Assembly: GCA_903878275.1 (NCBI GenBank)
Contig: CAIRHC010000009.1
Location: forward strand, 11,855-75,854
Length of the DNA: 64,000 nt
Direction of reading: 5' to 3'
Source: Candidatus Vogelbacteria bacterium
GTDB lineage: Bacteria; Patescibacteriota; Minisyncoccia; Phycocordibacterales; XYD1-FULL-46-19
The notes beneath the pieces were generated by a model. It was not told where the DNA came from, did no database searches, and saw only the letters and a program-made list of their open reading frames with translations. This document shows positions 2,713 through 47,999 of this stretch, piece after piece; within the stretch, counting starts at the first letter, position 1; each line of letters opens with the position of its first letter. Position numbers and translations under genes: made by a program.

Positions 2713-2737
2713 AATATCAAGGGGAGTCCTTGATATT
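2713..2737. repeat. REP-like hairpin copy 1: aatatcaagg-ggagt-ccttgatatt
   Basis: Exact 25-nt stem-loop. It is identical to copies at 3432-3456 and 47757-47781, and lies immediately after the pyrG stop. Confidence 0.7.
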
Positions 2738-2767
2738 AAAATTAAAGTGAGGTAAAATTTAAGAATT

Positions 2768-3433
2768 ATGGAAAGAAAATTTTCTTTTAGTTCTGGAGAA
2801 ACCTATCATATCTATAATCGTGGAGTAAATAAACAATTAGTTTTTCTTACCGACCACGATCGATTTCGTTTTTTGATTTTACTATATCTTACTAACAATA
2901 AAAAAGAGGTTCATATTAGTAATTATCGTGGTTTTTCTTTGCAAGATTATTTTGTCCTAGAAAAAGGTGAACCTTTAGTTGAGATTGTCGCTTATTGTTT
3001 AATGCCGAATCATTTTCACCTTATTCTAAAAGAGATTGAAGATGGGGGAATATCGAAATTTATGCTTAAACTTCTAACTGGTTATGGTATGTATTTTAAC
3101 AAAAAGAACGACAGAACTGGTCCTGTTTTCGATGGATGTTTTAAAGCAAAACATGTTGCGGAAGATTCTTCTTTGGAGTATCTTCTGGCTTATGTCCACT
3201 TAAATCCGGTAAAAATAAAAGACGAAGAAAGTTGGAGTGAAAAAAAGATTACTAATTTATCTAAAGCGAAGGATTTTCTTGAATCCTATCGTTTCTCTAG
3301 CTACCCAGCTTTTTTGGGACAGAATCGACCAGAAAATAATATTTTAAATTACAGCTCTTTGTTGGATGATTTAGCTGATGGGCAAAAAGATACAAAGGAG
3401 CTGATAAAAATCTGGGCAGAGTTCGAAGAGTAA
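2768..3433 (+). CDS. IS200-like / REP-associated Y1 (HUH) tyrosine transposase (RAYT-like)
   Basis: 221 aa carrying 'YHIYNRGVNKQLVF', a HUH motif 'YCLMPNHFHLILKE', and 'RTGPVFDGCFKAKHVAEDSSLEYLLAYVHLNPV' with a candidate catalytic Tyr. The pattern matches the COG1943/PF01797 family. The gene is flanked on both sides by identical REP hairpins. Confidence 0.6.
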   Translation: MERKFSFSSGETYHIYNRGVNKQLVFLTDHDRFRFLILLYLTNNKKEVHISNYRGFSLQDYFVLEKGEPLVEIVAYCLMPNHFHLILKEIEDGGISKFMLKLLTGYGMYFNKKNDRTGPVFDGCFKAKHVAEDSSLEYLLAYVHLNPVKIKDEESWSEKKITNLSKAKDFLESYRFSSYPAFLGQNRPENNILNYSSLLDDLADGQKDTKELIKIWAEFEE

Positions 3434-3456
3434 TATCAAGGGGAGTCCTTGATATT
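3432..3456. repeat. REP-like hairpin copy 2 (identical to copy 1), overlapping the RAYT stop codon
   Basis: Exact repeat of aatatcaaggggagtccttgatatt. Confidence 0.7.
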
Positions 3457-3516: not shown

Positions 3517-3587
3517 TGCCGGATCATCTAATGGTAGGATGCATTCCTCTGGAGAATGTCATCTTGGTTCGAGTCCAAGTCCGGCAG
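3517..3587 (+). tRNA. tRNA-Gln (anticodon CTG)
   Basis: 7-bp acceptor tgccgga/tccggca. Anticodon stem cattc/gaatg with loop ctCTGga. T-arm cttgg-ttcgagt-ccaag. CCA is not encoded. Confidence 0.7.
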
Positions 3588-3680
3588 CAAACGACTTTCC
3601 TCTATGATTTAAGCCATTTTTTTAGGATAGGCTTCTTGGACGTCAGAACTTTTTGTCAAAAATAAAGTGAGTGGCAAGGC

Positions 3681-3700
3681 AGAGTAAAATTTACTATAAT
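3681..3700 (+). promoter_or_regulatory. Promoter-like 20-mer agagtaaaatttactataat (-10 TATAAT at 3695-3700), 6 nt upstream of an ATG
   Basis: A near-identical 20-mer recurs at 4009-4028 with the same 6-nt spacing to the next ATG. Confidence 0.4.
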
Positions 3701-3706
3701 ATAACT

Positions 3707-4015
3707 ATGGAGAATATAAATGGATTATATATAAAAAAAGAGGAATCAGAGGGTTATATACAAGAATTTGATCAATTGGCAACTTTAGGCGACATAAATC
3801 TTGGGGCGGGTAAAAAAGTAAGTTTCCAACCTTGGGGTCGCTATGACGGGGAAAGACAAGTTGGGACGGTTAGACTATGGGAAGAAGACCCCAACTTGAT
3901 TCATATAGTTTTTCGAGGAAGCAAAGCTGGCGTTCCCTATCCTGACGGGGAGCGAATTACCAGAGAAAACTTCAATCAACGGAAAAATATTTGGCAAATC
4001 AGGGAAGTAGAGTAA
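3707..4015 (+). CDS. Hypothetical protein (103 aa). The track ORF begins at GTG 3671, but that start would contain the TATAAT box.
   Basis: ORF with no recognisable domain. ATG lies 6 nt after the TATAAT box. Confidence 0.45.
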   Translation: MENINGLYIKKEESEGYIQEFDQLATLGDINLGAGKKVSFQPWGRYDGERQVGTVRLWEEDPNLIHIVFRGSKAGVPYPDGERITRENFNQRKNIWQIREVE

Positions 4016-4028
4016 AATTTATTATAAT
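4009..4028 (+). promoter_or_regulatory. Second copy of the promoter-like 20-mer agagtaaaatttattataat; it overlaps the stop of the upstream gene
   Basis: Direct repeat of 3681-3700. TATAAT at 4023-4028, ATG at 4035. Confidence 0.4.
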
Positions 4029-4034
4029 TATCCT

Positions 4035-5084
4035 ATGCAAGAAAAATATAGAATGAGCGAATTTGACGCTCAAAATGAGGCTGAAAAGCTTAAGCAGATA
4101 GTAGAAACTGGTCAAGCTAAGGATTATGATATGGCCGAAAAACTTTTACAGACTCAGATAGAAAATTCGCCCATCGTAGAAAATAGAGAGCTTGGAGTTT
4201 CTTATAGAGAGACAGTTGAAGAGTTACCGCTAGAGTTACAAGAACAAACTGGTATTAAAAGGCTTAGGCGTAGAAAGGTTTTATCGTACCCAGATTTTTT
4301 TTGCAAAGAAGGCAAGTCTGGATATTACTACTTTGACGTTGGTATTTCTCCAAGTAGCCAAGGAGGAATAGCAAGTGATAAAGGGGTTGAATTTGACCGA
4401 GAAGAGCGTCAAAAACTTGAAACAATTTGGCATTTTTTTACAAACGACAGATTCTTAACATATAAAACTTGGAACCATAGAATGTCCGCTGATTGGTATA
4501 ATTCTGAAGGAGAAGAAATGATAAGGGAATTTTACGAGGAAGAATGGCTATTCCAGGAATTTTTTCCAGTTAGAAATTTACAAGGAGGCATAACAATAGA
4601 TATATTCAATAAAGATAAGGATGAAAATTTTTCATTAATGGAGTGGAAAGAAAAAGTCAAACTGACTGATGAAGAAGCACGGGCAAAATTATCAATTTTT
4701 CCGATGTCCCTATCTGAAGGGATAGAAGGGGGTGTTGGCTATGGGCCAACTTTTGTTTTTGGAAAAAATAATAAGGAATTTGTGGATTATATTAAAACAA
4801 TTCTGACTTTATCAGAGATAAGAAAAATGATGGAGCTCACTAAATTTTATGACAAACCTTTTTCAACGCCAGAGGAAAGAAAAATTAGCCAGCCTGGTAG
4901 CAGTTTGAACATTCAAAGAATTAATCAGTTATTGAATGAAGAAGAAGTTAAGTTCTATGATCATCCTTGTATCCCAGTAGTTAGACATCCCGATATAAAA
5001 AGACCTCTTAGGTGGTGTGATGCGGAACTAGCAATTCTTCCTCAAGGGAAAGAATTAGAAATCGTATTTTTTGAGACTGAATAA
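4035..5084 (+). CDS. Hypothetical protein (349 aa, acidic, no recognisable domain)
   Basis: Long uninterrupted ORF preceded by the duplicated promoter-like element. Confidence 0.5.
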   Translation: MQEKYRMSEFDAQNEAEKLKQIVETGQAKDYDMAEKLLQTQIENSPIVENRELGVSYRETVEELPLELQEQTGIKRLRRRKVLSYPDFFCKEGKSGYYYFDVGISPSSQGGIASDKGVEFDREERQKLETIWHFFTNDRFLTYKTWNHRMSADWYNSEGEEMIREFYEEEWLFQEFFPVRNLQGGITIDIFNKDKDENFSLMEWKEKVKLTDEEARAKLSIFPMSLSEGIEGGVGYGPTFVFGKNNKEFVDYIKTILTLSEIRKMMELTKFYDKPFSTPEERKISQPGSSLNIQRINQLLNEEEVKFYDHPCIPVVRHPDIKRPLRWCDAELAILPQGKELEIVFFETE

Positions 5085-25105: not shown

Positions 25106-25407
25106 CTTAAAAATATGGCAACAAAAAAAGCGTGCCGAGGCACCCTTTCTTTGGTAGAAGCAGCGTCTTATATGATGACAGTCTCCAGTTTTACAACCGA
25201 TTTCTCAATTGTGCCTCGAATTCTCCGAGGGAACACCAGAGCACCTTATAAGCTATTATTGCATGCTTCTAATAAGAGCATAGCACTTAAAAAGGCAAGA
25301 ATCAAGAAAAGTCAAGCAAAATCAGAGAAACTGTGGATAAAGTTTTGTCAGAGCTGAAAATGTGTTGAAAAATAAGGGGATTTAGCTAATATAACTTCAC
25401 GCAAAAA

Positions 25408-29426: not shown

Positions 29427-31143
29427 TTCGTCAAAATTAAAAAAGTTTTTTCTAAATTCAGCGATTTTTGTCGGTGCATTGTTTTTGCTTTTCCCTAATC
29501 TGTCTTTTGGTGCTGATTTGAAAATTGGCGCGAATTATTCGACTTATCAAGTCGGCGACAATGTCTCGGTTCGAGTGTCGGTCGCTAGTCCTGGGCAGGC
29601 GATCAATGCCGTGTCTGGCACTTTAAAATTTCCCGCTGATAAATTGCAGGTTGTTTCATTGAGTAAGGCTAGCTCGGTAGTTAATTTGTGGGTGCAAGAA
29701 CCAGCTTTTTCTAATACCACCGGCGAAGTAAATTTTGAGGGTGCAATTTTGAATCCTGGTTTTGTCGGCGCTTCCGGCTTGGCTTTGACGATAAATTTTA
29801 AAGCCAAAAAAGAGGGGACAGTTAACCTCAATTATTCGGTTGGTTCGATTTTGGCGAATGATGGTCAGGGGACAAATGTGCTCGGAAAATTGGGGCAATT
29901 AAATTTAACGATTAAACCAGCGACAGCCGTACCAACTGTTCCAGTTTCGCCAACACCAAAACCAAATTCTGCGGATCTGACTCCCCTTGCAGTTATTTCG
30001 ACAACTCATACCGATGAAACCAAATGGTATAATAATAGTTTGCCGGAATTTTCTTGGGTGGTCCCGACCGGTGTGACCGCTCTTAATTTATCGCTCGATC
30101 AAAAAGATAACACCGATCCTGCCGAGCAAGTCGCTGGCAATACGAGTTCTTATAAAGCGCCAAACGCTTTGACGGATGGAGAGTGGTATTTCCATATCAA
30201 GTACAAAGTTGGTGGAAATTGGAGCCCAATCACTCATCGAAAATTACAGATTGATACTGGTGTGCCGGAAAAATTAAATATCAACGAAATTAAACAGACC
30301 GAAATCGGAAAGGCGAGCTTTGCTTACGATGGAAGTGATCAAGCGTCGGGGATTGACCGCTTTGAATTTCAAGTTGACGGTGCGTCGCCAGCAAATTTGA
30401 ATGAGACTTCTGGGATTTATAATACGCTATCGCTGGCTGACGGCGCTCATACTTTGCTAGTTAAAGTTTTTGATCGCGCTGGAAATGTGGCGACTAAAAA
30501 AATTGATTTTCAAATTGGGGGAGCCGTCTCCCCTAGTTTGTCGGCAAGTTTAGGTACTTGGCCATTGGTCATTATTATCGTTGCCGGAATTTTGTCGCTA
30601 ATTTTGGTGGTGATTTTAGCAATGCTCCTAATCATCAGCTGGCGACGGCTTGATGCCATTGAAAGTTTTTCACGAAAAGAACACGAAGAAAGTACCGAGC
30701 ATTTGCGCCAAGCGATTAGCTTGGTTGAATCTAGTTTGCGTTCAAGACAGGAATCTTCCTCGGCACCAGTGGTTAGTGTTCCGGTTGTCCATATTCCCAC
30801 ACCTCTACCACCAGTTGAGCCACCAGCACCAACTTCTGAACTAACTACAATTATTAAAAATGAAAACAACGACAGAGGCAGCATCGTTTTTCGTGGTCAA
30901 GGCAATCCGGGCGAAGCAATTGTGGTCTTGCGTGACGAAAAAATGTTGGCAGAAACTGCCGTGGGTCCGGACGGTCACTTTGAAGTCGGTTTGTCTGGTT
31001 TGATTCCCGGTTATTATCGCTTGTCGGTGACGACCGTAGAAAATTTAAATAAACGAAGTTTGCATCAAGTTTATCCGGTTTTGTTGTCGGCGGGAACCAC
31101 CTCTCTGATTAGTGGTTTGGTGATGAAAAATTTGCCAAATTAG
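29404..31143 (+). CDS. Membrane protein: signal peptide, cohesin-like domain, Ig/FN3-like region, single TM, and a C-terminal domain with an Ig-like fold
   Basis: 'VGDNVSVRVSVASPGQAINAVSGTLKFPADKLQVVSL...FEGAILNPGFVGASGLALTINFKAKKEGTVNL' resembles the cohesin fold. TM 'WPLVIIIVAGILSLILVVILAMLLII'. The C-terminal 'FRGQGNPGEAIVVLRDEKMLAETAVGPDGHFEV' is homologous to a domain of the dockerin protein. Confidence 0.5.
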   Translation: MEKINKNSSSKLKKFFLNSAIFVGALFLLFPNLSFGADLKIGANYSTYQVGDNVSVRVSVASPGQAINAVSGTLKFPADKLQVVSLSKASSVVNLWVQEPAFSNTTGEVNFEGAILNPGFVGASGLALTINFKAKKEGTVNLNYSVGSILANDGQGTNVLGKLGQLNLTIKPATAVPTVPVSPTPKPNSADLTPLAVISTTHTDETKWYNNSLPEFSWVVPTGVTALNLSLDQKDNTDPAEQVAGNTSSYKAPNALTDGEWYFHIKYKVGGNWSPITHRKLQIDTGVPEKLNINEIKQTEIGKASFAYDGSDQASGIDRFEFQVDGASPANLNETSGIYNTLSLADGAHTLLVKVFDRAGNVATKKIDFQIGGAVSPSLSASLGTWPLVIIIVAGILSLILVVILAMLLIISWRRLDAIESFSRKEHEESTEHLRQAISLVESSLRSRQESSSAPVVSVPVVHIPTPLPPVEPPAPTSELTTIIKNENNDRGSIVFRGQGNPGEAIVVLRDEKMLAETAVGPDGHFEVGLSGLIPGYYRLSVTTVENLNKRSLHQVYPVLLSAGTTSLISGLVMKNLPN

Positions 31144-31255
31144 TCGATCAAAACTTATCCACAAAATTAAGTTAAAAAGCCTGATTTTTCATATCAGTCA
31201 ACGGCAAAATACGTTATAATATTAAACATAGATTCATCATACAAATAAATAAAAA

Positions 31256-32755
31256 ATGATCGTTGATCGAAAGATAAAAGGTGTGTTGTTGTCAATTTTC
31301 ACTCTGGTGCTTTTTAGTTGGAGTGGAGTAGCTTTTTCGGCTGATCTTAAAGTTGTTACCAATAAAACAAATTATCAAGTTGGTGATATCGTTTCAGCGA
31401 GAATTATCTTGTCTTCAGCCGATCAATCGGTCAATGCCGTGTCAGGGACTTTGAAATTTCCGACGGATAAACTGGAAGTGACTTCACTTAGTAAATCTGG
31501 CTCGGTCATCAATCTTTGGGTGCAAGAACCGGATTTTTCAAATAGCACTGGTGAAGTCAGTTTTGAGGGTGCAATTTTAAATCCCGGTTTTACTGGTGCA
31601 TCTGGTCAATCGTTGTCAGTGAATTTTAAAGCCAAAAAAGCTGGCACGGCGACAATATCTTTTTCGACAGGTTCAATTTTGGCAAATGATGGTCAGGGTT
31701 CGAGTATTCTCAAAAAACTTGGTCAAACTTCTGTGACTATCGGCAGTACCAAAGCTGTTATTGAGCCGGCGATCGAAGTAGAAAAACCGGTTGAAGTTGA
31801 AACAACAATTGCGCCCAAAAAAGAAACGAAAAATCAATATCCTGATGTGCCAAGTATTGTTTCGCTGACCAATCCTGATCAAAGTCTTTGGTACAGCATT
31901 AATTACCCGCAGTTGTCTTGGACGTTACCGGAAGACGTGACTGATGTCAGTCTGATTTTTGATAACAAGGAAAAAACAATTCCGCCGACCAAATCGCAAG
32001 GTTTGTTTTCCTCTTATGTCGATGGCAAAAGCGTTGCTGATGGTAATTGGTATTTTCACTTAAGATTTAAAAATAAAATTGGCTGGGGACCAGTCGGGCA
32101 TTACAAATTAAATATCGACACAAAAGAACCGGAGCGCTTTGAGGTGAACGAAGTGAAATTGGGGCAAGGTTCGGCGGGTGCGCGGTTTGTTTTTGACGGT
32201 ACTGATGCTTTGTCTGGAATTGATCATTTTGAATTTCAAGTTGATGATTCGGAACCGCAAATTATCAACGCTGATTCAGTCAAAACTTTTGATACGCCAG
32301 ATTTGCGAGCCGGGCGACACATTCTCACCGCACGAGTGATTGATCGAGCGGGGAATTTGGTGGTGAGAAAATTAACCTTTGCCATTGATCCAGAATTGAC
32401 CGGTTCATTTGCCGTGCGAGTGGGTGACAATTTAATTTTGGTCTTATCAGTTTTGGTGCCGTTAATTATTTTGTTGATGGCGCTGATTTATATTTTACTA
32501 ATCAGCTGGAAAAAGCTATCAACAATTAAACGGCGTTTGCGAAAAGAGGTGCGAGAAGCCGAAGATGGCCTACATCAAGCCTTTGATTTGATTAAAGAAG
32601 ATTTGCAGGTACAAATGGAATTGTTGAAAAAAGCCAAAACCAAACGAAAATTGACGGCGATAGAAACAAAAATAATGAAAAATATCAAAGCCGATTTGAA
32701 TGAAGCCGAGAAATTTATTAAAAATGAAATTGAAGATATTTCCAAACAAATTTAA
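31256..32755 (+). CDS. Paralogue of the previous gene: cohesin-like domain, single TM, C-terminal coiled coil
   Basis: 'VGDIVSARIILSSADQSVNAVSGTLKFPTDKLEVTSL...FEGAILNPGFTGASGQSLSVNFKAKKAGTATI' is about 60% identical to the 29404 N-domain. TM 'LILVLSVLVPLIILLMALIYILLI'. Confidence 0.5.
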   Translation: MIVDRKIKGVLLSIFTLVLFSWSGVAFSADLKVVTNKTNYQVGDIVSARIILSSADQSVNAVSGTLKFPTDKLEVTSLSKSGSVINLWVQEPDFSNSTGEVSFEGAILNPGFTGASGQSLSVNFKAKKAGTATISFSTGSILANDGQGSSILKKLGQTSVTIGSTKAVIEPAIEVEKPVEVETTIAPKKETKNQYPDVPSIVSLTNPDQSLWYSINYPQLSWTLPEDVTDVSLIFDNKEKTIPPTKSQGLFSSYVDGKSVADGNWYFHLRFKNKIGWGPVGHYKLNIDTKEPERFEVNEVKLGQGSAGARFVFDGTDALSGIDHFEFQVDDSEPQIINADSVKTFDTPDLRAGRHILTARVIDRAGNLVVRKLTFAIDPELTGSFAVRVGDNLILVLSVLVPLIILLMALIYILLISWKKLSTIKRRLRKEVREAEDGLHQAFDLIKEDLQVQMELLKKAKTKRKLTAIETKIMKNIKADLNEAEKFIKNEIEDISKQI

Positions 32756-35700
32756 AATCTGGAAAATCTTGGTGATTTTTCTGTTGCTGGTAATTTTACC
32801 CGTTGGCTTTTTGGTAAAAGCTTCGACTGTTCCGGCGATAATTAGTTATCAAGGACGTTTGGCTGACGCTGATGGCAATTTGCTCGGTGGCGCTGGGACC
32901 GATTATAATTTCAAGATTTCTTTTTGGACTAGCCCGACGGTTGGTGCTGGTTCGCGTGTTTGGCCATCGTCTGCTCCGACGGCTTTCGTCTCGACCGTTC
33001 GTCACGGCTTATTTAATTTAAATATTGGCGATACGACTGGTGGTTATCCTGATGCACTTGATTATGATTTTTCAAGTAATGATAAAATTTATTTGCAAGT
33101 TGAAGTTTCTAGCGGCGGCGCTTACGAGACATTATCGCCACGCCAGCTGATGACCAGTACGCCGTTTGCGTCACTGGCGGGTGCGGTGTCTGGTTCTGGC
33201 GCTTCGACGATGGGCTCGCTTACTGTGACTGGAAATTCCACTACGACCAATGCCACGACCACAAATTTATATGCCAATTCTAGTATAGGTTTGAATGGTC
33301 TTTATGTTAACAATTGGTCTGATTTAGCACCTTATCTTCCGACAGCGGCTGGCTGGGGAACATCAAGCGATAGTATAAATTTTAATTCTTTATTAGATGC
33401 TAAAGATAAAGGATATTTTTTCGCTTCTTCTTCGGCTGATGTCTGGGGCGCGTCGAAAGGTTATCTAACTTCATATTCTGAAACCGATCCTGTTTGGACT
33501 TCCGAAAAAGCTGGTTACCTCACGACAGGTACTGCGGCTTCTACTTATCTTACTTTGTCTGCCTCTACCTCATTACCTTATCAGCCGGTTGGAAGTTATT
33601 TGATTACCGAATCTGATCCGATATTTATGGCTGCCTCGTCCTCGTTTCTAACTTTAAATAATTGGTTTGCCACTACTACTTGGGGCGGGTCATCATTAAG
33701 TGTTGGGACCAATAATACTTATGGCTCGCTAACTGCGATGGGCGGGACTACTTTTTCTACTGTTCCACCTTACGGCACAGCGTCGATCGGTCATATTTCT
33801 CATACTTCTGGTTGGGATGGTAGCGGGTTTTTGTTTAGTAATTCTTCTGTTGGTTCAAATGCTTTTTCGATGGTTTACAATGTCGATAAAGCTTGGTTTG
33901 GGGGAATTACTGATAGTTCTGGTGTCGCTTGGATGACGCTTGATGCTGGAGGTTTGCAATCATACGGTACTGTTTCTGGTACTAATTTATCCGGTACAAA
34001 CACTGGTGATGTTACTTTGGCGAACAATTTAAATGGCTTAACAATTTCTAATCAAGTTTTAACCTTGGGTCTAGCCTCAACCAATGCTACTGGTACTCTT
34101 TCTGCTACCGATTGGAATACTTTCAATAATAAACAGCCGGCTGGTAATTATCTCACTTCATATTCAGAGACTGATCCTGTTTGGACTTCCGAAAAAGCTG
34201 GTTATCTTACCACTGGTGCTGCCGCTTCCACTTATTTAACTATTTCGGCTTCCACCTCAATTAGGTCTCTGCCAAATCTCTCCATTACCAAATCTCAAGT
34301 TTCTGATTTTGGCTCACCGCTTTATTCATACTCTGAAACCGATCCACTATACGCTTCAGCTTCATCTTCTATCTTAAGATTTGGCACAACCTCTGATGTT
34401 TTGACTGAAGGTGCGACAAATAAATTTTACACTGACACTAAAGTTGCAAATTACATAAATAGTTCCTCGACGCTTGGTTTTCAAAACTTTACGGCTGGTC
34501 ACGGCACCACCACAAATTTTTATGCTGGCACTAGTCTTGGTTTGAATAGTCAATATATTAGCAATTGGTCGGAACTCGCGGCTTTTTTGCCGACTGTAAC
34601 CGGATGGAGTACTACGAGTGATAGTGTGAATTGGCAAGATAATTGGAATTCGGTAAAAGGGGATTACTTAACTATCTCCAGTGCCGGCTCTACTTATCTA
34701 CCACTTTCAGCGTCCACTTCTTTAGCTTATGTTAAAACCGAAACTGATCCGGTGTGGACGTCAGAAAAATCTGGTTATCTCACTACTGGTCTGGCAGCTT
34801 CGACATATCTTACTTTGGCCGCCTCTACTTCTTTAGCTTATCAACCAATCGGAAATTATCTCACTTCATATTCAGAAACTGATCCAGTTTGGACTTCCGA
34901 AAAAGCCAGTTATCTCACTACTGGTGCCGCCGCTTCCACTTATTTAACAATTTTGGCTTCCACCTCAATTAGGTCTCTGCCAAATCTTTCAATTACTAAA
35001 TCTCAAGTCTCTGATTTTGGCTCACCGCTTTATTCATACTCTGAAACCGATCCCGTTTTTACCGCGTGGAACAAAACGACCGGTATCACTATCTCCGAAT
35101 CGCAAATTACAGATTTGCAAGACTACCTAACTACCGAATCTGATCCGGTCTGGACATCAGAAAAAGCTAGTTATCTCGCTACTTCGGGCAATGGTGGCTC
35201 GTTGACTGGTTTGACTAAGACTCAAGTTGGTTTATCAAATGTTGACAATTATTCTTCAACCACGCTCGAAGTTTTGTCGGCGACCAAACTAAAAACGGCA
35301 CGTACTATAAATGGTGTATCGTTTGATGGTACGGGAAATATTACGGTGACTGATGCTGGTTACACTGCCGCTTCGTCATCGATTCTACGTTATGGCACAA
35401 CAACAGATGCCTTGACCCAAGGCTCGGTCAATAAATTTTATGCGCAAGCTTTGGTGTGGAATGATATTTGGGCATCCTCAACTTTAGCTACGACATTAAA
35501 CAATTCTGCCACTGCTTACGGTTGGGGCAATCACGCCGATGCTGGTTATCTTACCACCGGTGCCGCCGCTTCCACTTATTTAACTATTTCGGCTTCCACC
35601 TCAATTAGGTCTCTGCCAAATCTTTCAATTACCAAATCTCAAGTTTCCGATTTTGGCTTACCGCTTTATTCGTATACTGAAACTGATCCGGTCTGGAATG

Positions 35701-39879: not shown

Positions 39880-42800
39880 ATGCAATTCCGAGACTCGAAA
39901 ATTCAGAGTTTTCTTTTAATATTTGCATTTGTCGCCACCCTTACTTCAGTAGGGCTATTTGGAGTAAATAAAGCCGAAGCGGCACCCAATCTCACCATAA
40001 ACTATCAAGGTAAAATGACTGATAATCTCGGAGTGACTTTAGCTGATGGTAATTATACTTTTGTCTTTAGTTTGTACACTGGAGCCTCTGGTGGTTCAAA
40101 CGTTTGGACCGAGACCCAAACTGTCACCATCACCAATGGATTATTCTCCACCATGCTTGGTTCGGTCACACCATTTACTGATAATCTTTTTAATCAAACA
40201 TTATATCTTGGTGTCAAAGTCGGAGCTGATCCAGAAATGACGCCCAGGAAAATTATCGGTTCGGTTCCATCGGCTCTTGAAGCGGAAAAACTAAATGGTC
40301 TGGCGGCTGTCTCTTTTCTTCGATCCGATATTGCTAATGCCACTGGTACTATCAATAATTTCAACAACACCAATGCTACTTCATCCAATTTGAATGTTTC
40401 TAATCTTTTGACAGTGGAAGGGGATTTGACTGTTTTGGGGGATAGTAATCTTGCCACTACAACGACTGGCAATCTCACCGCTGGTTCTACTTTGTATGTC
40501 AAAAACGGTCAGGTTGGAGTGGGATTCGATCCGGCAGTTTTGCTCGGTACTGTTTTTGGCACCAATAAAACTTGGACAGAGACAACCGGGCAGTTGGCTT
40601 CCAACTATTTTAATTCAACTTTTAGCCCGACGGGAGCGTCCGATGCTTTTCAGACTGGTCTTTACAATGTCGTGACCGCTGATGGCTCTAATAACCAACT
40701 TATTTTGGTGGGTCAAACGGTGAGTTCTGTCTACGGTGGTACAGCCAACTTAGCCTACTTGCAAGGGGCATCTATCTCTTCGGATTTGGCAAACACTGGT
40801 AGTATTACGAGTGCGTCGGCTGTTAGTGGTCAGATTAATAATGGTTTGGATAGTAATGGTGGAAATATTACTGATGCTGCTGTCTTTTCCGCAAAAACCA
40901 GTTTGGGTGATTCGGCTGGTGTAGTGACCAATGCTGCTAATTTTGACTCTCGATTCACTGTTCAGAGTGGATCAATAGTTAACGCTTACGGTGCTTATCT
41001 GGCTAATCCTTGGCTTCCTGGTTCTGGCACCATCACTAATTTGTATGGTTTGTATGTCCAAGATCAAACTAAGGGTAGTAACTTAAATTACAATATTTAT
41101 TCGGCTGGAGCGACCAGCAAAAATTATTTGGAAGGTAATTTGACGGTCGGAGGCAATGCCACGGCAACCAGCTTTGCTTTGAATAACGAAAAATTTACCA
41201 ATTGGGTTGGCTCTAATCTTTACAACAACAATGGGATTCTTGGAGTTACTACGACACCGACTTTTAGTAGTCTGACGGTAAATGGTAATGCCACGGCAAC
41301 CAGCTTTGCTTTGAATAACCAGACCTTTACCAACTGGCTTGGTTCTAATCTTTATAATAGTAACGGTACTCTTGGCGTTACTACCACACCTTCTTTTAGT
41401 GGTCTAACTGCGACCTACGCAACCACAACAAATCTTAACGCTGGCTACCTTAATGTTTCTGGTGGCACCCAAACGGTTGTTGGTGGAACAAACATATCTT
41501 TACCGGCGGTTAAGGGTCTTTCGGTCAATGAAAAAATAGTCGGGAATTACTTATACATGGTTTTTATGTCTCCGACCTCTACCGATCAATTAAGAATCGT
41601 GGATATTTCTGATCCAACTAATCCCAAGGTGGTGGGTGGACAGAATTTGTCTTTACCAGTTTATGGAGCGAGGTGGATAGATGTTGTCGGTAAATATGCT
41701 TATATTGGTTTTGAAAATAATCCCTACGGTTTTCGGATTGTAGATATTTCTGATCCAACTAATCCTTTTATCGTGGGTGGTGATAAGCTACAATTTGGTT
41801 CGTCTATCAGAGGGGTAAAAGTTGTCGGTAAATATGCTTATCTGGCACGCTATACCCCAAACGGATTTTCTATTGCTAGTTTAATTATTCTAGATATTTC
41901 CGATCCTTATGATCCCAAGGTGGTTAGTCCTGACACTATTCCTGGTTTGGTTAGTGAAGCCCGGTCTATTGATGTCGTCGGTAAATATGCTTATCTAGTA
42001 TCTTACTTTAATGATCCGTTGGATCCTGGTAATACTGGTCCCAACGTTTTACGTATCGTTGACATTTCTAACCCAGCGAACCCTGTTGTGGTTGGCGGTT
42101 CGTCTTTAGTTTTGCCAGACTATGCCCGGCAGGTTCAAGTAGTTGGTCGTTACGCTTACGTCATTTTTGATTCTTTTGGTTCCGTTGAAGGGATTGACCA
42201 GGGGTTAAGACAAAACGAAGCGTTTAGGATTTTGGATATTTCTGATCCCACCAACCCCGTTGTTGTTGGAGGAGATAATTTAAATTTTAGCACAGGTCTT
42301 GTTTCCGGCGGTGGCCTAAGATCTCTTTATGTGGCGGACGGTCTTGCTTATACAACCGAAGGTAATGGAGTTTTGCATGTTATTGACGTGTCTAGTTCAA
42401 CCAATCCGGTTTCTCGAAGTCAGTTTTTACTAGAAAAGTCTCCTGGCTACTCTCTTGCGATTTGGGCACTTGCTGTGTCCGGTAACTATGCTTATGTCGG
42501 CACACCTGATACTCCTTTTTCTTCAAACTCAACGAACGTTTTGAGAGTGGTGGATTTAAAGGGTTTAAAGACTGGTACGGCAAACATTGGCACTCTAAAA
42601 ATTGGCTCACTTAATGCCGAATCTGATATTGTGACAGCTCGGGATATTTTTGCCAACGGTCTTAACCTTGGTGTGGGGGGGATTATCACAGATGGTAGTA
42701 TTAGTGTTATTGGTACTACTACATCCTCTTTCTTTGGTGGCAACCTTGGTTTGGGTACAACCACTCCAGCCTACACTCTAGTCGTCGGCAACGGCAGTAC

Positions 42801-47376: not shown

Positions 47377-47686
47377 GACCTGTTATTGGGCAATTGCTCT
47401 GATGTAAAAGTCGGGGAGGAAAGTCCGAACACTTACTTCTAATTTATTAGAGGTTAAAAAGGTAGCGGGTAACGCCCGCCTGGGGTGACCCACGAGGTGC
47501 GAACAGAAACGACCCGGTTAAGTCCGGCTGAAACGGCAAAATCCTTACCAGAGTGCAAGGCCGTGCTCTATTTATAGAGAGTGCCGCTAGAGGCAAATAG
47601 TAATATTTGTCCCAGATAAATAATTGCCGTCCTAAACACCGCAAGGTGTAGGATACAGAATTCGGCTTATAGGTAGCAGGTTATCA
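47377..47686 (+). ncRNA. rnpB: RNase P RNA, bacterial type-A-like; boundaries are approximate (+/-15 nt)
   Basis: Universal P4 strands 'GGGGAGGAAAGTCCG' (47411-47425) and 'ACAGAATTCGGCTTAT' (47655-47670). 'GGGTAACGCCCGCCTGGGG' and 'CCCACGAGGTGCGAACAGAAAC' match E. coli 'GGUAACGCCUGGG' / 'CCCACGACCAGUGCAACAGAGA'. Proposed P1: gacctgttatt (47377-87) pairing with ggtagcaggtt (47672-82). The track ORF 47447-47644 inside it is spurious. Confidence 0.75.
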
Positions 47687-47687
47687 A

Positions 47688-47717
47688 AAAGCCCACCCTA
47701 AAGGTGAGGCTTTTTGT
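47688..47717 (+). terminator. Terminator gcccaccctaaaggtgaggc followed by TTTTT, right after rnpB
   Basis: Read directly. Confidence 0.5.
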
Positions 47718-47756
47718 GTACAAATATTACGAGGACCGTCCTTGTGCTATTTAAAA

Positions 47757-47781
47757 AATATCAAGGGGAGTCCTTGATATT
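47757..47781. repeat. REP-like hairpin copy 3 (aatatcaaggggagtccttgatatt), followed by a T6 run
   Basis: Exact third copy, in the same loop orientation as copies 1 and 2. Confidence 0.7.
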
Positions 47782-47786
47782 TTTTC

Positions 47787-47999
47787 TTAGTCGATTAATT
47801 TCCCTCTTTTTTCCTTTTTTTGTTTAAGCACTTTATCTTTCAATAGCTTTTGAATCTCGGTGATGCAGTACATTCGGTAGCGATTTTGCGGGTCTCTTTC
47901 GGATTTTAGTTTGCCGGCTTTGTCCCAGTTGCGCAAAGTCTCCACGGATACCCCGAGGATTTCAGCTGCCGATTTGATTGTCACCATTCCTTTTTTCAT
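47787..47999 (-). CDS. Small MerR/excisionase-type HTH DNA-binding protein
   Basis: 70 aa. 'TIKSAAEILGVSVETLRNWDKAGKL' is a MerR/Xis-type HTH. Confidence 0.5.
   Translation of the reverse strand: MKKGMVTIKSAAEILGVSVETLRNWDKAGKLKSERDPQNRYRMYCITEIQKLLKDKVLKQKKEKRGKLID

Follow-up and report, generated by a model that had tools for sequence, protein, structure and literature searches.

A RAYT-class gene between cognate hairpins in Candidatus Vogelbacteria and its counterparts across Patescibacteria

Does a transposase-like gene lying between two identical hairpins form with them a resident unit of enzyme and cognate palindromes, or is it a mobile element, or a gene beside regulatory hairpins of the host? 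This question was raised by positions 2713-3456 of a stretch of 64,000 nucleotides of contig CAIRHC010000009.1 (Candidatus Vogelbacteria bacterium, assembly GCA_903878275.1), the whole of which will be called the window. The original prediction, made from the letters of the window alone, had read this segment as a REPtron, i.e. a gene of a RAYT (REP-associated tyrosine transposase) bracketed by its REP (repetitive extragenic palindrome) sequences. In our judgement the segment is quite probably a resident, vertically inherited RAYT locus laid out as a REPtron or TIRtron, the mechanism proposed below included. The position of the gene between cognate hairpins is a family trait across Patescibacteria.

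Hairpins, gene and product in the window

The 25-mer AATATCAAGGGGAGTCCTTGATATT, built as AATATCAAGG-GGAGT-CCTTGATATT, occurred exactly three times in the window, always on the plus strand and with the same loop GGAGT, just as predicted (Table 1). No further copies with up to three mismatches were found there; none is expected by chance, and 100 dinucleotide shuffles of the window gave no match. The three copies were also the only AGG-N5-CCT hairpins with a stem of at least 5 bp in the 64 kb (shuffle mean 0.63), and the numerous other terminator-like hairpins of the window are each unique in sequence. All three copies are intergenic and their flanks are unrelated, so that segmental duplication does not account for them. 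Folded as DNA, the 25-mer forms a 10-bp stem with a 5-nt loop (dG -7.6 kcal/mol, z = -6.4); in copy 3 runs of A and T lengthen the stem (dG -11.6). Copy 1 begins 8 nt past the pyrG stop codon, the first bases of copy 2 fall within the stop codon of the RAYT gene, and copy 3, 44 kb from that gene, lies 72 nt downstream of rnpB and 5 nt past the stop codon of a MerR-type gene on the opposite strand. No T run follows copy 1 or copy 2. As for the tetranucleotide guides considered in the original prediction, no conserved guide or target was found 5' of the hairpins, the flanks in the window being AAAG, GAGT and AAAA. At gathering thresholds, Rfam gave no match at any hairpin of the window, nor at the conserved-context hairpins of 13 other loci.

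The open reading frame (ORF) between copies 1 and 2 encodes 221 amino acids. The product carries an HUH motif (H82-F83-H84, in PNHFHL) and a tyrosine motif of the class-2 type, YVHLNP, whose Y142 is presumed to be catalytic. Both motifs, looked for at the suggestion of the original prediction, are present and invariant across an alignment of 92 sequences, in which H82, H84, Y138, Y142-x-H-L-N-P and a C-terminal Y..SS never change. The AlphaFold model (pLDDT 90.9, pTM 0.89) shows a helical C-terminal tail (residues 150-221, with YRFSSY), and its best Foldseek match in the PDB was 4er8_A, the E. coli TnpA-REP with a REP hairpin (E 3.4e-6, target TM 0.63). The TnpA structures of IS608 and ISDra2 scored weaker (E ~3e-3); Foldseek probability was 1.0 for each of 4er8, 2xm3, 2a6m and 2vjv. 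The sole Pfam match was Y1_Tnp (PF01797, 'Transposase IS200 like'), a narrow pass with 25.8 bits against a cut-off of 23, and the sole NCBIfam match was REP_Tyr_transpos. The latter model was matched by 92 of 92 relatives (best E 1e-15). Beyond it, these relatives matched only a tRNA pseudouridine synthase model (22 members); IS200 models of NCBIfam had no match among them. By its motifs and modelled fold, the window protein belongs to the RAYT class of Y1 HUH endonucleases, which act on single-stranded DNA, in agreement with the original prediction.

The motif set NHFH, LF[EQ]G (VFDG in the window protein), Y[IV]HLNP and SSY tail fits TnpA-Y1 subclass 2.1 (Table 1 of PMC6006769). Judged by motifs, the window protein appears closest to this subclass, which corresponds to group 1 of Bertels and to the TIRYTs (tyrosine transposases associated with terminal inverted repeats, TIRs). 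The C terminus of the window protein gave no Pfam match to the helix-turn-helix (HTH) families Bac_DnaA_C, HTH_23 or HTH_28; a Collinsella relative has weak HTH matches in its tail. The nearest plasmid-borne relatives (27-33% identity) have NHIH, YIELNP and WSSY and, in one case, an HTH tail. Compared with them, the Patescibacteria proteins possess an extra segment of ~22 amino acids between helix A and strand 2, which houses the intragenic hairpin site described below. At least 6000 homologues were retrieved, and the named sources among the top 120 were Patescibacteria groups only (Vogelbacteria, Paceibacterota, Kaiserbacteria, Minisyncoccia), with the nearest named homologue (91% identity) in a metagenome-assembled genome (MAG) of Candidatus Vogelbacteria. 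A RAYT in a streamlined genome, which had been considered notable, is by these numbers not rare.

A promoter-like site overlaps the left hairpin: the -35 hexamer TTGATA lies inside its 3' arm and is followed, after a 17-nt spacer, by the -10 hexamer TAAAAT, which ends 9 nt before the RAYT ATG. Of 74 related loci, 32 have a TAnnnT that follows the counterpart of the -35 hexamer by 16-18 nt, compared with 5.7% at random positions, and the median gap between -10 and ATG was 6 nt. Many stems of the family read CCTTGACA, a perfect -35. The location of the -35 box in the hairpin arm explains the constant distance of ~50 nt to the ATG. The sequence makes TTGATA-17-TAAAAT a candidate RAYT promoter and suggests autoregulation as well as leaderless or near-leaderless RAYT transcripts. 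Hairpins beside stop codons probably act as terminators, as had been proposed for all three copies; this is plausible for copy 3, while copy 1 also supplies the -35 box.

Table 1. Positions of the RAYT locus, its hairpins and other features of the window
Feature	Position	Strand	Basis or remark
pyrG	1068-2705
Left cognate hairpin	2713-2737	+	Exact 25-mer; ~55 nt before RAYT start
Promoter-like site	2730-2758	+	Consensus scan, 10/12 matches; -35 at 2730-2735, -10 at 2753-2758
RAYT-class Y1 HUH gene	2768-3433	+	Pfam, NCBIfam, invariant residues, AlphaFold model, 4er8_A; HUH at 3011-3019, YVHLNP at 3191-3208, stop codon at 3431-3433
Decayed intragenic hairpin site, codons N52-D60 (NYRGFSLQD)	2921-2947	+	Alignment by hand
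Right cognate hairpin, oriented as the left one	3432-3456	+	Exact 25-mer; overlaps TAA
tRNA-Gln	3517-3588		Downstream of right hairpin
ORF of unknown function	3671-4015
44-nt repeat, copy 1	3681-3724		Includes TATAAT box
44-nt repeat, copy 2	4009-4052		Includes TATAAT box
ORF of unknown function	4035-5084
DUF3800-V RNA motif	25156-25270	-	Rfam, 60.2 bits against gathering threshold of 37.4
Diverged long direct repeats	33476-35697, 41135-42288, 29600-31726		203-, 137-, 66- and 299-nt units
rnpB	47378-47685
Solo hairpin, 14-bp stem, between convergent rnpB (+) and MerR-type gene (-)	47753-47785	+	Fold and exact 25-mer (47757-47781)
MerR-type gene	47787-47999	-

Related loci and hairpin copies elsewhere

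The order ftsX-pyrG-RAYT-tRNA-Gln is kept at loci L050-L055 (such labels denote loci from other genomes), with 71% identity for RAYT and 84% for pyrG. The flanking hairpins of these loci retain the ATCAAGG stem and have the loops CACGC and TACGC. From the survival of the order pyrG-RAYT-tRNA-Gln at 71% identity it follows that the gene is a resident and not a hopping insertion sequence (IS), and from the kept gene order combined with changed loops that gene and hairpins have diverged in place. One RAYT copy is present in the window. Two distant RAYT paralogues, each with its own hairpin, were detected on single contigs in L108 and L132; several paralogues with their own repeats are known from REP/RAYT systems (PMC6006769).

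The layout was examined at 80 metagenome loci with homologues of 39-78% identity together with the loci of two closer homologues, 89 distinct loci being counted. An AGG-N5-CCT motif was present 20-80 nt ahead of the start codon at 73 of them (82%) and at -20 to +60 of the stop codon at 67 (75%), whereas the chance expectation for a 6-base motif in 60 nt is ~1.5%. Typically, one hairpin stands ~50 nt before the ATG and the other at the stop codon. The motifs are embedded in perfect, unbulged hairpins with a stem of 7-17 bp and a 5-nt loop, and the lower stems vary by locus (ATCAAGG, GTCAAGG, CCATAGG, GTGAAGG, ACCGAGG and others). Hairpins of one locus match each other while their sequences change between loci and genomes; in any one locus or genome, copies differ at most by inversion of the loop. 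In an alignment of 65 upstream hairpins anchored on AGG/CCT alone, 87% of cells paired, and at stem positions 4-7 from the loop 20-36 sequences had changed on both sides. The covariation score was 0.614, compared with 0.151 for shuffled alignments (reached in 0 of 500) and 0.09-0.16 for slid controls. Such strong covariation indicates that the hairpin is a selected structure, with the three pairs that close the loop as its sole invariant part. Direct orientation of the flanking copies is seen in the window and in L070, L128, L064, L125, L085, L091 and L101, loop inversion in L005, L066, L080, L111, L092 and the entire TCTTG/CAAGA clade. The loop class tracks the protein clade only partially, so we do not assert with confidence that specificity resides in the loop.

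In 18 of 84 full-length genes, a further hairpin was present within the RAYT ORF itself, at nt +155 to +165. Seventeen of these 18 matched their own flanking copy or its loop inversion (table read by eye). The encoded peptide follows the DNA (IQGLPL, IPIGEAYG, LQGSTL, EGLTFT, NQGESLM), and the length of the segment barely changes (23.3 vs 21.1 amino acids). The window gene has NYRGFSLQD at this site, where ~12 of 22 positions match the hairpin in a hand alignment and no fold is formed; its syntenic 71% orthologue has ATCAAGG-gcgtg-CCTTGAT, encoding NYQGRALMD.

Several peculiarities were seen around the RAYT genes of relatives. In a 78% relative (L049/L056 2258-2440), a 3' piece of pyrG (61 aa, 84% identical to the window's pyrG) lies ~1.6 kb downstream of RAYT, past an inverted PALP gene, which indicates local rearrangement beside hairpins. 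Between pyrG and RAYT, L057 has a hairpin-bounded ORF for a 96-aa membrane protein (398-928), and DAOTDH01 (L005/L043, DAOTDH010000015.1) a 249-aa protein of unknown function and a hydrolase fragment, each hairpin-bounded. A gene for an RNase T/ExoX-type exonuclease is located just downstream of RAYT in L005. The five independent contigs of the 71% orthologue L051-L055 all stop ~110-125 nt past the RAYT stop codon, inside or just before tRNA-Gln, suggesting an assembly break at repeated or variable sequence. Five hairpin copies occur within 2.7 kb around the RAYT gene in L012 (1116-3832), and three direct copies spaced by ~250-270 nt in L040 (1320-1859).

The third copy of the window could also be followed into other species. 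The order RNR-rnpB-[hairpin]-MerR(-)-TPR protein(+) is kept in relatives, with TPR proteins 46-52% identical, and the site is framed by an outer palindrome, AACAAAAA...TTTTTGTT. The same site holds AACAAAAATAATCAAGG-gcaat-CCTTGATTATTTTTGTT (ATCAAGG-gcaat-CCTTGAT) in L137 and ATCAAGG-acagg-CCTTGAT in L138, abutting rnpB in both, while L142 and L143/L144 have an unrelated GC stem within the same outer palindrome, AACAAAAAA...TTTTTTGTT. Since the orthologous sites hold stem-loops, the solo copy sits in the core of an old bidirectional terminator, and the extended hairpin of copy 3 is probably such a terminator itself. The position downstream of rnpB had been given correctly; the copy is not a fresh insertion, and the MerR-type gene 5 nt away had been overlooked. 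The loop of copy 3 is identical to the RAYT-flanking loops 44 kb off, whereas the orthologous sites of other species carry different loops. Candidate causes of this uniformity within a genome are RAYT-mediated replacement, template switching and selection for binding. The rnpB gene is short (308 nt aligned over the 367-position bacterial type A model, 119 bits) and has its own terminator-like hairpin at ~47692-47708, ahead of the RAYT-type hairpin.

To assess dispersal, one genome per species (596 Gb) was scanned for the exact 19-nt core ATCAAGGGGAGTCCTTGAT, for which ~4 chance matches are expected. The scan yielded 66 copies at 48 loci in about two dozen assemblies, nearly all of Patescibacteria (Saccharibacteria, Paceibacterota, Kaiserbacteria, Parcubacteria, Vogelbacteria), with top counts per MAG of 11 (DAOTDH01), 9 (CAYHST01), 8 (LBYH01) and 6 (MFLD01). 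Matches in Bacillota and Dehalococcoidia are probably due to chance; in two Bacillota MAGs (L025 5357, L035 6664) the 19-mer lacks a stem extension and lies in conserved context, with a match to group II intron D1-D4 ~180 nt downstream of it. Beyond the core, the stem is extended by complementary bases that are specific to each genome (aat..att, ccacc..ggtgg, aaa..ttt); the flanks of the 66 copies vary, merely lengthening the stem, and the invariant bases are the loop-closing AGG/CCT only. At six of the 48 core loci, a RAYT homologue (42-71% identity) stands directly beside the hairpin. Of 68 RAYT-centred loci, 13 have cognate solo copies at a distance of over 150 nt from the gene (0.46 per 10 kb).

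A stop codon precedes 19 of the 66 copies by no more than 40 nt; 13 of these are in sense and 3 in antisense orientation, and 3 fall between convergent genes. Another 16 are near 5' ends only, 12 are farther away, and 19 are inside ORFs of at least 90 amino acids, some of which are possibly spurious. Intragenic copies are translated as QGESLI, SRGVLD or SRTPLD. Both in ComEC (L019 compared with its homologue in L004) and in RsmI (L028 compared with 5hw4), the hairpin forms an in-frame insertion of 7 amino acids (21 nt). In rlmN of Parcubacteria GW2011_GWA2_40_143 (L013 2891-2928, LBYH01000001.1), two abutting inverted cores in frame encode QGESLISRTPLD and lie within an 18-aa insertion relative to solved RlmN structures. 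The intragenic hairpin of an MJ0936-type phosphodiesterase is ambiguous as to insertion. In purD, the core appears with the same codons (GTSNQGESLITAGGRV) and without stem extension at L018 452, L034 4161 and L041 6496 (two Saccharibacteria MAGs and one unclassified 'bacterium'); it may be one inherited chance match in three genomes, or an overwritten segment. Host genes with intragenic hairpins elsewhere have no orthologue in the window with which filled and empty sites could be compared.

Other features of the window are included in Table 1. The DUF3800-V RNA motif is unrelated to the RAYT locus. The diverged long direct repeats resemble repeated domains of large surface proteins, and a syntenic relative encodes an LVIVD-repeat protein beside the RNR gene. 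The two 44-nt copies of AGAGTAAAATTTAYTATAAT... (73% identical) each lie shortly before, or reach across, the start of one of two neighbouring ORFs and may represent a duplicated promoter/leader.

Proposed mechanism and competing explanations

The proposed mechanism is modelled on E. coli TnpA-REP, which is reported to bind single-stranded REP DNA and to cleave and rejoin it (PMC3333891, PMC3479197). Like TnpA-REP, the enzyme would bind the folded hairpin on single-stranded DNA (ssDNA), recognising it by the invariant AGG/CCT pairs and the loop, and would cut and rejoin beside it, so that hairpin units would be copied or replaced. A family of hairpins in low copy number would thereby be dispersed and its uniformity maintained, with copies at intergenic spots, in terminator cores and sometimes in frame within genes. 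Hairpin formation or RAYT binding at the left hairpin, with its -35 box, would probably feed back on RAYT expression.

A number of points weigh against a REPtron- or TIRtron-like resident that acts in this way. With respect to the protein, the REP_Tyr_transpos match (37.9 bits, E 1.5e-9) falls short of the equivalog cut-off of 80, and the E-values imply that all 92 relatives are under it as well; by score, the window protein is a relative of this family, not an equivalog. The family profile matched PDB sequences only marginally (E 0.1-0.2; ISDra2 TnpA, TnpA-REP), the structural alignment with 4er8 has ~14% identity, and this homology is the ground on which binding, cleavage and mobilisation would be ascribed to the family. 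With respect to the hairpins, the REP-type GT[AG]G foot was not found at the three window copies or among the 66 copies elsewhere, and copy number is probably low (3 per 64 kb, at most 11 exact-core copies in any MAG, the MAGs being fragmentary). Inverted doublets of the REPIN or BIME (bacterial interspersed mosaic element) type are absent from the window, where all copies are single, and paired copies are few among the 66 (L009, L013 and L027 inverted, L031 and L032 direct), most being singletons. The mixture of direct and loop-inverted flanks indicates no obvious single strand-specific rule of end recognition. The solo copy occupies an orthologously conserved terminator site, where selection for host function could keep it without transposition. 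The purD hairpin adds no length compared with PDB PurD proteins, and the mnmA hairpin, an ambiguous case, possibly also lies in coding sequence without added length; the purD case rules out simple insertion as the only origin of intragenic copies. Finally, in 47 of 66 copies the strand with the GGAGT loop coincides with the locally G-rich one (binomial p ~8e-4), but the copies are not independent, as the test takes them to be, and gene orientation is a confounding factor. As the G-rich strand is the expected lagging-strand template, the bias fits a single-strand-specific enzyme. The core of the original REPtron reading is supported by the protein motifs, the modelled fold, the REP_Tyr_transpos match and the cognate bracketing at most of the 89 loci; the GTAG foot and doublets that go with classical REPs are missing, and copy number is probably low.

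We put forward only tentatively, as a possibility well short of even, a more far-reaching version of the resident RAYT locus: a phylum-wide vertical RAYT lineage with a ~21-nt AGG/N5/CCT partner, in which the enzyme would rewrite a few resident sites to the current cognate sequence instead of scattering hairpins en masse. These sites would be its own promoter, its own stop codon, a fixed codon position in its own ORF, terminator cores (rnpB/MerR) and in-frame housekeeping positions, amounting to concerted evolution by a domesticated transposase combined with an autoregulatory loop.

Another explanation, which we regard as unlikely, takes the hairpins for host regulatory elements (terminators, -35 elements, protein-binding sites) and the RAYT for a fully domesticated binder of ssDNA or RNA hairpins that moves nothing; loop identity within a genome would then reflect a few binding sites co-evolving with the binding protein. 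It agrees well with the rnpB/MerR site, which has the same stem in three species with its own loop in each and an ordinary terminator stem in other relatives, with the conserved position of the hairpin after pyrG, and with the apparently very low copy number. The -35 box within the hairpin arm, the intragenic site kept in position without length change, and the placement of intergenic copies (13 of 16 near 3' ends in sense orientation, half of them at most 8 nt from the stop codon) point in the same direction. It accommodates less readily that 16 of the 66 exact-core copies are near 5' ends only and 19 inside ORFs, some perhaps spurious, and that the 7-aa inserts in ComEC and RsmI and the tandem inverted pair in RlmN resemble insertion events. 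Moreover, invariance of the catalytic HUH and tyrosine in 92 sequences argues for kept cleavage chemistry over mere binding.

Much less probable still is that the 744-bp unit is an autonomous IS of the IS200/IS605 type, with the hairpins as its subterminal ends and the third copy as a remnant or target of another copy. The IS200-like size, the single Y1 gene with Y1_Tnp as its sole Pfam match, the direct hairpins on one strand at both ends, and the several metagenome contigs that break shortly past the gene would suit such an element. However, the protein has a class-2 tyrosine motif, YxxxNP, where IS200 subclass 1.1 has Y[IV]ENQ (Table 1 of PMC6006769), it comprises 221 amino acids with a C-terminal tail compared with ~150 in IS200 TnpA, no IS200 NCBIfam model was matched, and the structure is nearer to TnpA-REP than to the TnpA of IS608 or ISDra2. 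The locus is also syntenic at 71% protein identity with loops diverged in place, a second gene copy is absent from the 64 kb, and the end hairpins are loop-inverted in many relatives. That the three hairpins are unrelated intrinsic terminators sharing a sequence by coincidence, to which their location within 11 nt of a stop codon and the abundance of terminator-like hairpins with other sequences in the window might lead, is refuted by chance counts (zero 25-mer matches expected), by the 89-locus layout (82% and 75% bracketed likewise, with locus-specific sequences) and by covariation, apart from the uniqueness of every other terminator hairpin in the window and the missing T runs after copies 1 and 2, and has a negligible probability.

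Comparison with known systems

RAYT/REP systems are the main example of transposases turned into long-term, vertically inherited bacterial residents, and nearly all work on them concerns Proteobacteria and Cyanobacteria. No description of such systems in Patescibacteria/CPR (candidate phyla radiation) was found in the searchable full-text literature. A minimal and very regular form is kept widely in the ultra-small Patescibacteria genomes: one gene, a short perfect hairpin bearing a putative -35, a second hairpin at the stop codon, often a third within the ORF, and a handful of others elsewhere. The reading of a gene plus its hairpins is in itself ordinary for the field. Of specialist interest are i) the phylum-wide regularity, ii) a candidate DNA partner for the largest RAYT class, previously considered REP-less, iii) the candidate promoter in the hairpin, iv) the co-evolving intragenic copy, and v) the pattern of loops, uniform in each genome but differing between genomes at equivalent sites, by which it can be tested whether RAYTs homogenise resident hairpins or merely scatter them. 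The TATCAAGGGGAGTCCTTGATA hairpin offers a simple biochemical substrate of ~21-25 nt. The results also bear on annotation: the genes carry the label 'transposase' or no name at all, and 7-residue inserts in housekeeping proteins are due to the hairpins.

The E. coli REPtron (TnpA-REP, RayT/YafM; subclass 2.2, group 2 of Bertels) resembles the window locus in its single-copy, vertically inherited Y1 HUH gene with cognate palindromes on both sides and more copies elsewhere, in the YxxxNP motif, and in being the best structural match (4er8). Known REPs favour 3' ends of genes and can overlap stop codons (PMC3733652). Unlike E. coli REPs, the window hairpins have no GT[AG]G foot and their stem is perfect and unbulged; they occur in a few to about a dozen copies and mostly singly, whereas E. 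coli has hundreds of REPs and REPIN/BIME doublets. The window protein differs from TnpA-REP in its 221 amino acids, its C-terminal SSY tail, its ~14% identity and its score under the NCBIfam cut-off.

Subclass 2.1 (group 1, TIRYTs) shares with the window protein NH[YF]H, an FQ-type W motif, Y[IV]HLNP, an SS tail and a size of ~220-240 amino acids (length ~238 in Table 1 of PMC6006769), and the nearest relatives outside Patescibacteria are of this type as well. Low-copy flanking repeats are another common feature, as the 16-mers flanking group 1 RAYTs have ~12 occurrences per replicon (Bertels 2017, PMC5581495). Some TIRs flanking TIRYT genes were called self-complementary (Di Nocera 2013, PMC3733652), while no REP-like structures were reported beside subclass 2.1 genes (Quentin 2018, PMC6006769). 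Instead of the TIRtron motif GGGGWSAS, which is absent here, the window family has a regular short AGG/N5/CCT hairpin at fixed distances from start and stop codons. The window protein further differs from subclass 2.1 by having no detectable HTH tail and by the ~22-aa segment between helix A and strand 2.

With IS200/IS605 elements (IS200, IS608, ISDra2; subclass 1.1), the locus has in common the Y1 HUH fold, the subterminal hairpins on one strand beside the gene, and a strand bias of hairpins that fits action on ssDNA at the replication fork. In contrast to these elements, the window protein has YxxxNP and not YxxxQ and is longer, the gene is a single syntenic copy, a conserved guide or target tetranucleotide is missing, and hairpins are found on their own as well.

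In subclass 2.4 RAYTs (Cyanobacteria/Bacteroidetes), as in the Patescibacteria family, a cognate palindrome is present in frame in the RAYT gene (PMC6006769). In subclass 2.4 it lies between HUH and tyrosine, whereas in Patescibacteria it precedes HUH, keeps one fixed codon position and tracks the flanking hairpins. In-frame read-through in housekeeping genes (comEC, rsmI, rlmN) likens the family to Rickettsia palindromic elements (RPEs) and intragenic REPs, although the unit is far smaller here (~21 nt / 7 amino acids). The longer RPEs measure roughly 100-150 bp. Precedents for in-frame palindromic insertions are summarised in PMC3733652, and intragenic REPs, REP-supplied stop codons and REPs within RAYT genes all have precedents (PMC6006769, PMC3733652). 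Unlike CGTC-type repeats, the Patescibacteria hairpin is linked to a dedicated Y1 enzyme.

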